A stretch of 64,000 nucleotides of DNA from Sulfurospirillum sp. (GTDB taxonomy: Bacteria; Campylobacterota; Campylobacteria; Campylobacterales; Sulfurospirillaceae). The position numbers are program-made. Position 1 is the stretch's first letter, and each line of letters begins with the position of its first letter. Positions 57,601 through 60,600 of this stretch are shown one piece after another. Location of the stretch: positions 103,599 to 167,598 of the forward strand of contig JASFYR010000009.1 of the NCBI GenBank assembly GCA_045047115.1, given 5' to 3'.

Positions 57601-60600
57601 TTTATTACAGCCAGTAAATCATCCAACGTTTTGTCTTCGTTAATTTTAATGATATGCTTTTTGTAAAAAGGAAGATAATCACTTTTTGCATCAAATCTAA
57701 AAACACTCAATTTAAGCTTATATGTCATAACGCTCACTCCTAACATAATTTCTTATTAGTTTACTCTAAAAAAGCTTAAAAAGCATAAAATTGGTATAAT
57801 AGCAGAAAAATATAAGGAATTGAAAATCAAACGATTATTTTATCTAAACCATTCGCCTATAAATGTGCTTTTCACTAAAAACTCAAGTGATTTTGTTGTA
57901 AATGAACTTCCTCTTTATGAGTTTGGTGGCGAGGGAGAGCATCTCATTTTGCATATACGAAAAAAGGACATGACAACTTGGCAGGCAGTACAGGCACTGA
58001 GCGAAGCCTGCGGTGCTAAGAGTAGAGATTTTGGATATGCCGGACTTAAAGACAAAGACGGTATGACAACGCAATATATTTCGGTACATAGAAATTTCGA
58101 AAAAAAACTGGAGAATTTTAAGCATGAGAATATTAAAATTCTCTCAAAAACCTATCATAATAATAAAATAAGAGTAGGACATCTAAAGGGAAACAGGTTT
58201 TTCGTAAGACTTAAAAGAGTAGATAGAGTAGATGCGCAAAAACTACAAAGTGCTCTTAAAACTCTTGACTCTCAGGGCTTTCCTAATTTTTTTGGATACC
58301 AAAGATTTGGAAGAGAGGGTGATAACTATATCTTGGGAAAAGAGATACTTGAGGGCAAAAGAAGAGAGCGAAAGAGAAAAATGAAAAACTTTTATATCAG
58401 TGCATACCAAAGTTATCTCTTTAACACCTGGCTCTCAAATCGACTGAAAATCGGACATATACTAGAGGGTTTTGATGATAAAGAGGCGGCAGAGGCGCTT
58501 GGCTTTTCAAAAGATTTAGTAAAAGAACTTAGAAGGCAGAGAAGATTTTTTAAGGTATTTGTTGGTGATGTGGCTCACCACTATCCTGCTGGAAAAGCTT
58601 TCGTGTGTGAAGATTTACAGAGTGAACTAAAAAGATTTAAAGATGAAGATATAACTATAACCGGTTGGTTGCCCGGAGGTAGAAGTATGCAATGTGAGGG
58701 CTTTGCTAAAGTGCTTGAGGATGAAGTATACGAAGAAGCCAAGCCATACTTGAGCCAAATGAACGGAGCAAGAAGATTTGCATGGGCTTTTTTAGAAGAT
58801 GTAGAGTTCGAGTATAAAGAGGATCAAAATTGGTTTGAGATGCACTTCTCTTTGCCAAAAGGCTCTTACGCTACAGTTATTTTAGAAGAATTAACTCATA
58901 AGCTCAAATAAATGGTATAATTTCATCCAAAGGTACGATGAGTGATAGCCTGCTTATATAAGCAGGAGGAAAGTCCGGGCTGCATTGAAGCGTGGTTCCG
59001 CCTAACAGACGGCTGGGGTAACCCAAGGGATAGTGCAACAGAGAGTAGACTACATTTAATGTCATTCTTGCCAAAGGTAAAGCTTTAGTGAGATGAATTT
59101 TATATGGGCTTTGCTCATATAAAAGAAGACATTAAATGAAAAGGTGAAACGGCGGGGTAAGAGCCCACCAGAGTTTAGAGTAATCTAGACTGCTTTGTAA
59201 ACCCAACCTGCAGCAAGAATGGATTGGTTTTGCTTCATATTTTTACCATTCGCTAGATTGTTATCGTAAGACAGCAAGTAGATAAATTATCACTCGCGAC
59301 AGAACCCGGCTTATAGTCGTACCTTTTGCTTACCTGGCGATATCATAATCTTTTTTATAAATTTGAGTGAAAGTAAAAGTAAGAGTTAGAATTGCAAGAG
59401 CTATCAATGAAATGCTGATGGCTCCATTTTCTCCAAAGTGTTTCCAGATAAGTCCTGTAAAAATAGCTCCTAGTGCACCGCTTATGGCAACACCACCATA
59501 AAACAGACCATATACACTTCCTTTGTTTTTTGCGTAAGTTGAGATGTAAGCTCTAAGGGCATTTACGCTAGATACCATAAACAAACCTAAAAATATAAAA
59601 CTAAAAATTATAAGATTAAAATAGAGTGATGCCATAGAAATGATTCCAAATATAAAAGAGATGCAAAGCACATTTATTGCCCCAAATCTATCTACCTTGA
59701 GTCCAAAAAAGTAGCTAACCAGAGTTTGTGTCAAATTTAAAACTATAACTAAAAGAGGGATATGTTTTAGGCTATATCCAGCTTCTTTTGCTTTTATAAG
59801 ATAAAAAGAGTCGTTAAACATAAAAAAGACAAATCCAAAACAGAGCAACAATACCGGAAGCAACGAAATATCATCTTTTAATTTTATCTTTTGAATAGAT
59901 TTTTTAGAACTATAAGGTGTATCTTGGACAAAAAACAGGACTACAATTACAGCAAAAATACCTGGTATCAAAGTAAAAGCAAATATATCTTTAAATATAC
60001 CAGCCTTTTCTCCAAAATAATATAAGGCAATAAAAGCTATGATTGACCCACTTAATTCGCCTGCTATATCCATAGTTTTGTGAAAGCCAAATGTTTTGCC
60101 ACTTTTGCCTTTTTGTGAGTAGGCTGATATGAGAGTATCTTTTGTAGCACTTCTTATAGCTTTTCCAACTCTCTCTATGCCTCTTAGAGTTGCTATGCTT
60201 GTCCATCCAGAACTAAAATAAAGCAGAGGTTTTGTGATAGCTGAAATCAGGTATCCTCCAACTACAAAAGGCTTTACTATTTTGTATCTGTCGCTGAGAT
60301 ATCCAAAAACAAATCTAAAACCATATGATACAAAAGTAGCAATTCCAACGATGAATCCTAGTTTATCAATCCCATCGTGAAGTATGTAAACCACAAAAAT
60401 AGGCAATATGGAAGTAACCATACTACTTGCCATATCGGTAAAAAAACTGACAAAGCCAAGTGCTATTATATTTCTGTTTATCATTTAAAATATACTATAA
60501 AGCCAAGCCATATAAATATAGAGATAAAGATACTCATAAGCACCCCAAAAGCAGCTATATCTTTTGCATGTTTTGCCAGGATGTGATACTCGGGAACTGT

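Follow-up and report, generated by a model that had tools for sequence, protein, structure and literature searches.

The window, a stretch of 64,000 nucleotides from one contig of the genome under study (G000), that of a sulfur-cycling bacterium, contains rnpB, the gene for a type A RNase P RNA, downstream of truD and in convergent orientation with an MFS transporter gene (Table 1). It is the single RF00010 match in a genome that is 100% complete, and the type A assignment is based on a match to the whole model above the gathering score and on the presence of the conserved junctions. Rematching the gene reproduced what the genome-wide survey's note had given for its length, its score and its single long insert, which falls between model positions 136 and 137. 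Judged by its letters, the extended -10-like box just upstream is likely the rnpB promoter, and a TATAAT-like box is found at the equivalent place in most relatives; the box at 58913-58921 is not listed by a promoter scanner that requires a -35 box.

Table 1. Features in the window discussed in the text (window positions).
Feature	Position	Strand	Basis or remark
truD, upstream neighbour	57820-58911	+	synteny with rnpB in many relatives
extended -10-like box (TG-N-TATAAT)	58913-58921	+	read from the sequence; 8 nt 5' of the rnpB RNA
rnpB, type A RNase P RNA	58930-59329	+	RF00010, 251.9 bits, model 1-367; 400 nt
P3 hairpin	58948-58966	+	Rfam structure line; start and end resemble the second palindrome of relatives' P3/P12
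helix P9, GUAA tetraloop, intact	59013-59027	+	Rfam structure line
J11/12 conserved junction (ACAGAGAG...), intact	59038-59049	+	Rfam structure line; excerpt of PMC2858038
P12, 5' strand	59053-59063	+	11/11 pairing with the element tail
element hairpin 1	59067-59082	+	closing C-G and T-A pairs, one 3' bulge, 4-bp stem, AAA loop
element linker	59083-59097	+	best-conserved part of the repeat family
element hairpin 2	59098-59124	+	12 bp, TTT loop
element tail ending in ATG	59125-59138	+	59128-59138 is the P12 3' strand
P12 base and J12/13 (AAAAGGTGAAA), intact	59139-59149	+	Rfam structure line
MFS transporter gene, convergent	59330-60484	-	stop codon abuts the rnpB RNA 3' end
second element copy	3653-3749	+	51.5 bits; 10 nt before a 70-aa ORF

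The survey's note had placed the insert in helix P9, which has to be corrected. RNase P RNA helices are numbered by their order from the 5' end (PMC4919922, in part), and the order in the Rfam structure line is P8, P9, P10, P11, the ACAGA junction and then the helix carrying the insert, which is P12; an excerpt of PMC2858038 likewise locates a conserved loop between P11 and P12. P9, the second hairpin after P7 and before P10 and P11, is intact. The placement of the insert is less surprising in P12 than it would be in P9, since P12 is a peripheral helix of variable length: a passage of PMC4264200 describes it as variable and unalignable between species, and the excerpt of PMC2858038 as dispensable in cyanobacteria. 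With P9 and both junctions intact, the RNase P core looks untouched in the modelled structure.

The insert is a member of a dispersed repeat family. A profile was iterated from dispersed copies while rnpB was masked; it gave 81 matches in the masked G000 genome and 82 in the unmasked one, the additional match being the insert (C9:162665-162733, window 59067-59135, E 5e-13, rank 34 of 82), and none in the reversed genome. The proposal that the insert is a full copy of the repeat thus holds with a profile that never saw the rnpB copy. The insert folds on itself and its tail re-closes P12: as the note had also stated, the tail pairs with the 5' side of the helix, and the 11-bp closing stem (59053-59063 with 59128-59138) and a three-way junction appear in whole-gene and local folds (local z -6.4). 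The minimum free energy fold pairs hairpin 1 otherwise, with the linker. The direct repeat formed by 59052-59061 and 59129-59138 is identical at 9 of 10 positions and ends in ATG, and each of its two copies is near-palindromic, which makes it a candidate duplicated target. A 5' arm complementary to the tail is found in only one of 64 copies, the one in rnpB.

The closest relative of the insert is a copy in the rpl operon of the same genome (87.5% identity), while 13 other rnpB inserts are 69-79% identical to it; the dispersed copies are diverse, with a median of 72%. Gene conversion could be the source of this likeness to local copies, as suggested by the differing subtypes at orthologous sites. 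An assembly artefact at a repeat is hardly credible. Many copies do lie at contig ends; however, no other copy is closer than 87.5%, the 11-bp closure is perfect, and the insert is also present in the single- or two-contig assemblies G015, G042, G044 and G045 and in the named records of S. cavolei and S. sp. SCADC. Two sequencing runs (shares 0.04 and 0.00) contained contigs from other organisms with a short P12, none of them over the insert.

The repeat itself is about 75 nt long and directional, with hairpin 1, a conserved linker, hairpin 2 and a purine-rich tail. Over 46 copies hairpin 2 is 94% paired and 9 of its 12 pairs show compensatory changes (0 of 500 shuffles), three of the 12 being fixed by the pattern used to collect the copies. 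The note had described the copies as lying upstream of start codons. This is true of the 69 of 82 matches with a callable downstream ORF, all of which are in sense and point into a start codon on the same strand, 40 of them with ATG at the end of the element. Of 40 copies, 30 leave open the reading frame that ends in a stop overlapping the ATG downstream, against a mean of 8.5 and a maximum of 16 in shuffles, although the copies are not independent; the other frames are open in 12 copies each. The open frame was noted at the rpoB-rpoC junction of G000 contig C33 (L243) and genome-wide, and a short coupling ORF may thus be translated from the element.

At least one covariance-model match was obtained in 50 of 61 family genomes, among the matches listed and with 69 candidates scored, and on the same basis there are 20-71 copies per genome in the genus of G000 (g1), 12-51 in g2, 6-55 in g5, 3 in g4 and 0-3 in g3, and the element occurs in at least 38 of 121 genomes of the order, with 35 candidates scored. 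A tight sequence pattern found 20 loci, 11 of them in Campylobacterota, whereas an earlier, looser pattern gave mostly chance matches among the 80 loci listed. Named records with the linker belong mostly to Sulfurovum, Sulfurospirillum and other Campylobacterota. No Rfam model matched over the element up to E 10 at six loci with copies, nor did one match over the rnpB insert, and no account of this element was found in the literature searched. The insert has thereby brought to light a widespread Campylobacterota repeat that rewrites ribosome-binding sites, and neither a description in the literature searched nor, among the candidates examined below, a mobilising enzyme was found for it.

Several observations were made beside these copies. 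Head-to-tail arrays of up to four units occur in the rplA-rplJ spacer of G013 (L251) and at C5:89249-89397 of G000. In the window, at 15060-15180 on the minus strand, a three-hairpin relative of the element is nested in a different palindrome directly after the stop of a gene, and the same three-hairpin kind is present in P3 of the G004 rnpB. A conserved structured spacer of 56-68 nt precedes rplA across the family (rplK-rplA, L243-L291) and is probably an L1-binding leader. The G000 genome also contains further short palindromic repeat families, with 3-14 copies on many contigs, one of which flanks a RAYT-like gene on C7.

RF00010 matched in 50 family genomes, 49 of which were parsed (the G022 rnpB was left out). 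The full insert is present in 13: G000, G016 and 11 of the 25 genomes of g3, which is Sulfurospirillum, a genus in the same family as G000 (Sulfurospirillaceae, Campylobacterota), as seen from the g3-type insert in the named records of S. cavolei NBRC 109482 and S. sp. SCADC. The other Sulfurospirillum genes comprise 4 remnants of 64-68 nt and 10 plain ones. None of nine congeners of G000 carries the insert in its own rnpB, though each has 20-71 element copies among the matches listed; the note's statement that a congener lacks it therefore extends to all nine. This count excludes a second rnpB in G003, which groups with another family and probably comes from a stray contig. The own P12 of G003 is short and, being linker-like, may be a remnant.

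The note had considered it undecidable whether the family gave rise to the insert or the reverse. The repeat family is the origin of the insert, because the nine copy-rich congeners, among which G000 is nested, are free of it. The species tree (nusG, rplK, rplA, rplJ, rplL, rpoB; 52 genomes, with G052, G054, G057 and G065 of g3 and G006 of g1 left out for lack of an anchor gene) shows G000 as sister to G003 among insert-free genomes, and in a tree of the rnpB core, built without P3 and P12, G000 groups with its congeners. A descent of the family from a source or master copy in RNase P RNA is very improbable. Such a role might account for the complementary 5' arm, which only the rnpB copy has, and for its place among the last survivors in some genomes, but genomes rich in copies have a plain P12, most of the order has an rnpB of 315-350 nt (RF00010 matched in 136 of 141 order genomes outside the family), and the dispersed copies are too diverse.

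Outside the family the element was found in P12 of G170 and G141, among 20 longer rnpB genes retrieved from the order, and of seven named Campylobacterota bins (L038, L091, L110, L116, L148, L150 and L302). In all, the same helix has been entered in three families, that of G000 and two others, with four different junctions: one in G000, one in g3 and g4, one in L038, L091, L110, L116, L148, L150 and L373, and one in G170 and L302. In close kin the insert is absent or trimmed. The four junctions indicate repeated gain, and the one in G000 would be an event of its own on the terminal branch.

A single insertion in the family ancestor, followed by many losses or recombination swaps and equally neutral, was weighed against this and seems distinctly unlikely. 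G000 and the distant G016 have an 18-nt 5' junction in common, which by its sequence fits one old insertion with many losses or allele exchange; copies at argF and dnaK are common to G000 and Sulfurospirillum, and remnants exist. However, the shared junction letters are the usual start of the element plus 4-5 nt forced by pairing, and G000 differs from g3/g4 in its 3' junction and in hairpin 2. A single insertion also demands many losses in g1, g2, g5 and g6, and the two further junction types in other families require separate gains regardless.

The Sulfurospirillum genes bear on whether the insert is needed. In the core tree, zero-length branches join two genes that have the insert (G023 and G045) to a plain one (G047) and one with a remnant (G063). 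Since identical rnpB cores occur with the insert, without it and with a remnant, the insert is dispensable. The sister pairs G045/G046 and G015/G049 also differ in insert state, and the linker is eroding in the inserts of G044 and G052. An essential ribozyme is found here as a series of natural alleles (full insert, remnant and plain P12), all on one core and in a genus of which strains are in culture, which makes the long-assumed neutrality of repeats in RNase P RNA measurable.

All of these observations count against the insert being a domesticated RNA module, with a stabilising effect on RNA or a protein partner, that selection retains in abundant transcripts (ribosomal-protein operons, dnaK, the 16S leader, RNase P RNA), as do the unrelated palindromes at the same P12 tip in other genomes and hairpin-1 loops that are not of the RNA type. 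We regard such a module as unlikely, but it has several observations on its side. Each of the 69 copies followed by a callable ORF has the sense orientation, and the sites at infA, rplM, dnaK and the 16S 5' end recur in different families. The copies left in Sulfurospirillum are at rnpB, hemB-argF, grpE-dnaK and 16S, and the sole copy detected in G170 is the one in P12. Among the g3/g4 rnpB inserts both hairpins are 98% and 96% paired, hairpin 2 has compensatory changes (0 of 500 shuffles), and the hairpin-1 loop is GAAA in 8 of 11 g3 inserts. The P12 tip can also matter, as in the P9-P12 pseudoknot of D. radiodurans (PMC8457005, in part). Persistence of the rnpB copy with paired hairpins where the Sulfurospirillum family is nearly gone (0-3 copies detected) is more than pure decay predicts; the pairing agrees equally well with a function and with selection that only maintains the fold.

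Taken together, we consider it probable that a repeat of free-living Campylobacterota, directional, two-hairpin and non-autonomous, has inserted into the P12 tip of an otherwise intact RNase P RNA, where it is tolerated. The comparison with relatives points to several invasions of the helix, often followed by clearance, so that the insert appears tolerated rather than needed. Selection on the rnpB copy would merely keep the insert folded out of the way. The value of the case lies, in our view, with the repeated gains, the Sulfurospirillum allele series and a start-codon-seeking family for which the literature searched gave no description.

The insertion of repeats within rnpB is already known, from STRR and from the RPE of Rickettsia. 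Vioque reportedly described STRR sequences in rnpB of heterocyst-forming cyanobacteria in 1997, with a location in P12. These too are genome-wide repeats within RNase P RNA, but they form tandem arrays of heptamers, whereas here one structured unit makes a three-way junction. RPE are present in tmRNA and M1 RNA and are thought to be neutral (Ogata 2002, via an excerpt of PMC2229807); like the element, they are dispersed non-autonomous repeats within an RNase P RNA gene whose members carry reading frames. According to the same excerpt RPE are single palindromes of 105-146 nt with terminal inverted repeats that are fused in frame inside proteins, in contrast to an element of about 75 nt that is directional, has two hairpins, lies at start codons and lacks a terminal repeat outside rnpB. 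As expected of a repeat insertion of this kind, the rnpB insert belongs to a dispersed family, lies in a peripheral, variable helix with the core intact, and has an orthologous site that is empty in all nine congeners and plain in 10 of 25 Sulfurospirillum genomes. By analogy the element works like the STRR and RPE repeats in rnpB and is a member of neither family.

Other short hairpin repeats without a transposase of their own are the REPs tagged with CGTC or TGTC and the Ssn-related motifs (PMC3733652 and PMC11893778, in part). TGTC-like letters at the element tail, on the bottom strand, recall these REPs; the REPs are mostly downstream of genes, whereas the element is found at gene starts. 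CGTC and GTAG repeats have been reported in Sulfurovum NBC37-1 (excerpt of PMC3733652) and may overlap the two-hairpin family. Membership of the SRM/Ssn group (PMC11893778, in part) was rejected: none of 64 copies carries the published degenerate SRM motif exactly or with 1 mismatch, and 3 carry it with 2 mismatches (as do up to 3 in shuffles), and a small GIY-YIG gene, of the kind that such repeats flank, was not found in five genomes, each of which has only a 600-aa GIY-YIG protein. GTAG REPs or REPINs with a RAYT and the ends of IS200/IS605 resemble the element in their bulged hairpins and DNA-type loops, and Y1 transposases are present; however, none of the three Y1 genes in G000 is flanked by the element, one of them being flanked by runs like the SD-type tail, and the element was not assigned to the RAYT-linked REPs. 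Another observation is an IS605-like pair at C20:19553-19921 on the minus strand (L315), a Y1 transposase followed by a larger ORF with a stop near its start. To our knowledge IS200/IS605 elements make no target duplications, whereas variable ones were seen for the element. A MITE was rejected as well, since terminal inverted repeats are not present in all copies (arm-tail complementarity in 1 of 64) and the target duplication is not fixed in length, from a few to about 50 nt. Viral carriers were also dismissed, as five pattern matches in viruses were chance matches inside genes; a phage search gave no element match and a plasmid search one weak partial match, in a Sulfurovum plasmid.

How the element lands can be seen at the rpoB-rpoC gap, which is 0-2 nt in empty genomes and 116-202 nt in G000, G001, G004, G009 and G012. 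In these five genomes the old start is retained and the element adds a new SD-ATG, and orthologous sites hold different subtypes among congeners. A second SD and start lies just upstream in 15 of 48 G000 copies. Direct repeats between flank and tail have a mean length of 8.1 nt in G000, compared to 6.4 nt (maximum 7.5) in 300 shuffles, in a set where some tandem copies passed the filter and copies are not independent; after lepA, direct repeats of about 50 nt (G094) and 24 nt (G164) enclose the element. We suggest that the repeat would take as its target an SD/ATG-like sequence similar to its own tail and duplicate it. At the near-palindromic P12 tip the duplication itself would then supply both strands of a longer P12.

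Hairpin 1 gives a hint at how the element may move. Among 28 GNNA tetraloops, 22 are GNYA and 6 GNRA. C(GNNA)G is a stable loop of the DNA type, and an excess of GNYA marks DNA rather than RNA hairpins. Movement as single-stranded DNA, via a putative hairpin-reading enzyme, is favoured because GNYA loops outnumber GNRA; folding by strand did not discriminate between action as DNA and as RNA. The 16S rRNA 5' end starts with an ATG-like stretch, and the element lies immediately before it in L067, L071, L081, L232 and L241 (Sulfurovaceae and Sulfurospirillaceae genomes, G043 and G046 among them). A more far-reaching idea, which we hold to be doubtful, is a class of mobile hairpin DNA that would seek out sequences similar to translation starts, duplicate the start and couple ribosomes via a short internal frame. 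P12 and the 16S 5' end would then be target mimics, and the P12 copy a selected RNA module or a long-lived reservoir where the family has died out.

P12 is extended in other ways as well. The note had ascribed an element-like insert to a relative with a 415-nt gene (G017), which gave no covariance-model match with filters off and shares only the hairpin-2 loop motif. In G017, G027 and G109 the P12 arm is long and has a similar loop motif but gave no significant model match, and these three were not counted; long, branched or palindromic arms, unrelated or faintly related, are seen in G027 (L007), G157 (L363), G017 (L023), G109 (L375) and G166 (L374). A second palindrome, its ends resembling CTGCCCATA...TATGGGCAG, is found in P3 and/or P12 in three families, sometimes with identical copies in both helices: in G002, G004, G012, G068, G074 and G075 (L012, L032, L014, L184, L189 and L187) and in G121, G131, G102, G148, G161 and G173 (L364, L361, L362, L365, L366 and L369). 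Exact matches of its end within the family lie mostly inside rnpB, and from its sequence it looks like an rnpB-specific inverted-repeat element. The 337-nt gene of the congener G013 indeed lacks the insert, as the note had said, but its supposedly plain P12 resembles the core of this palindrome. The P3 hairpin of G000 itself is possibly a remnant of it.
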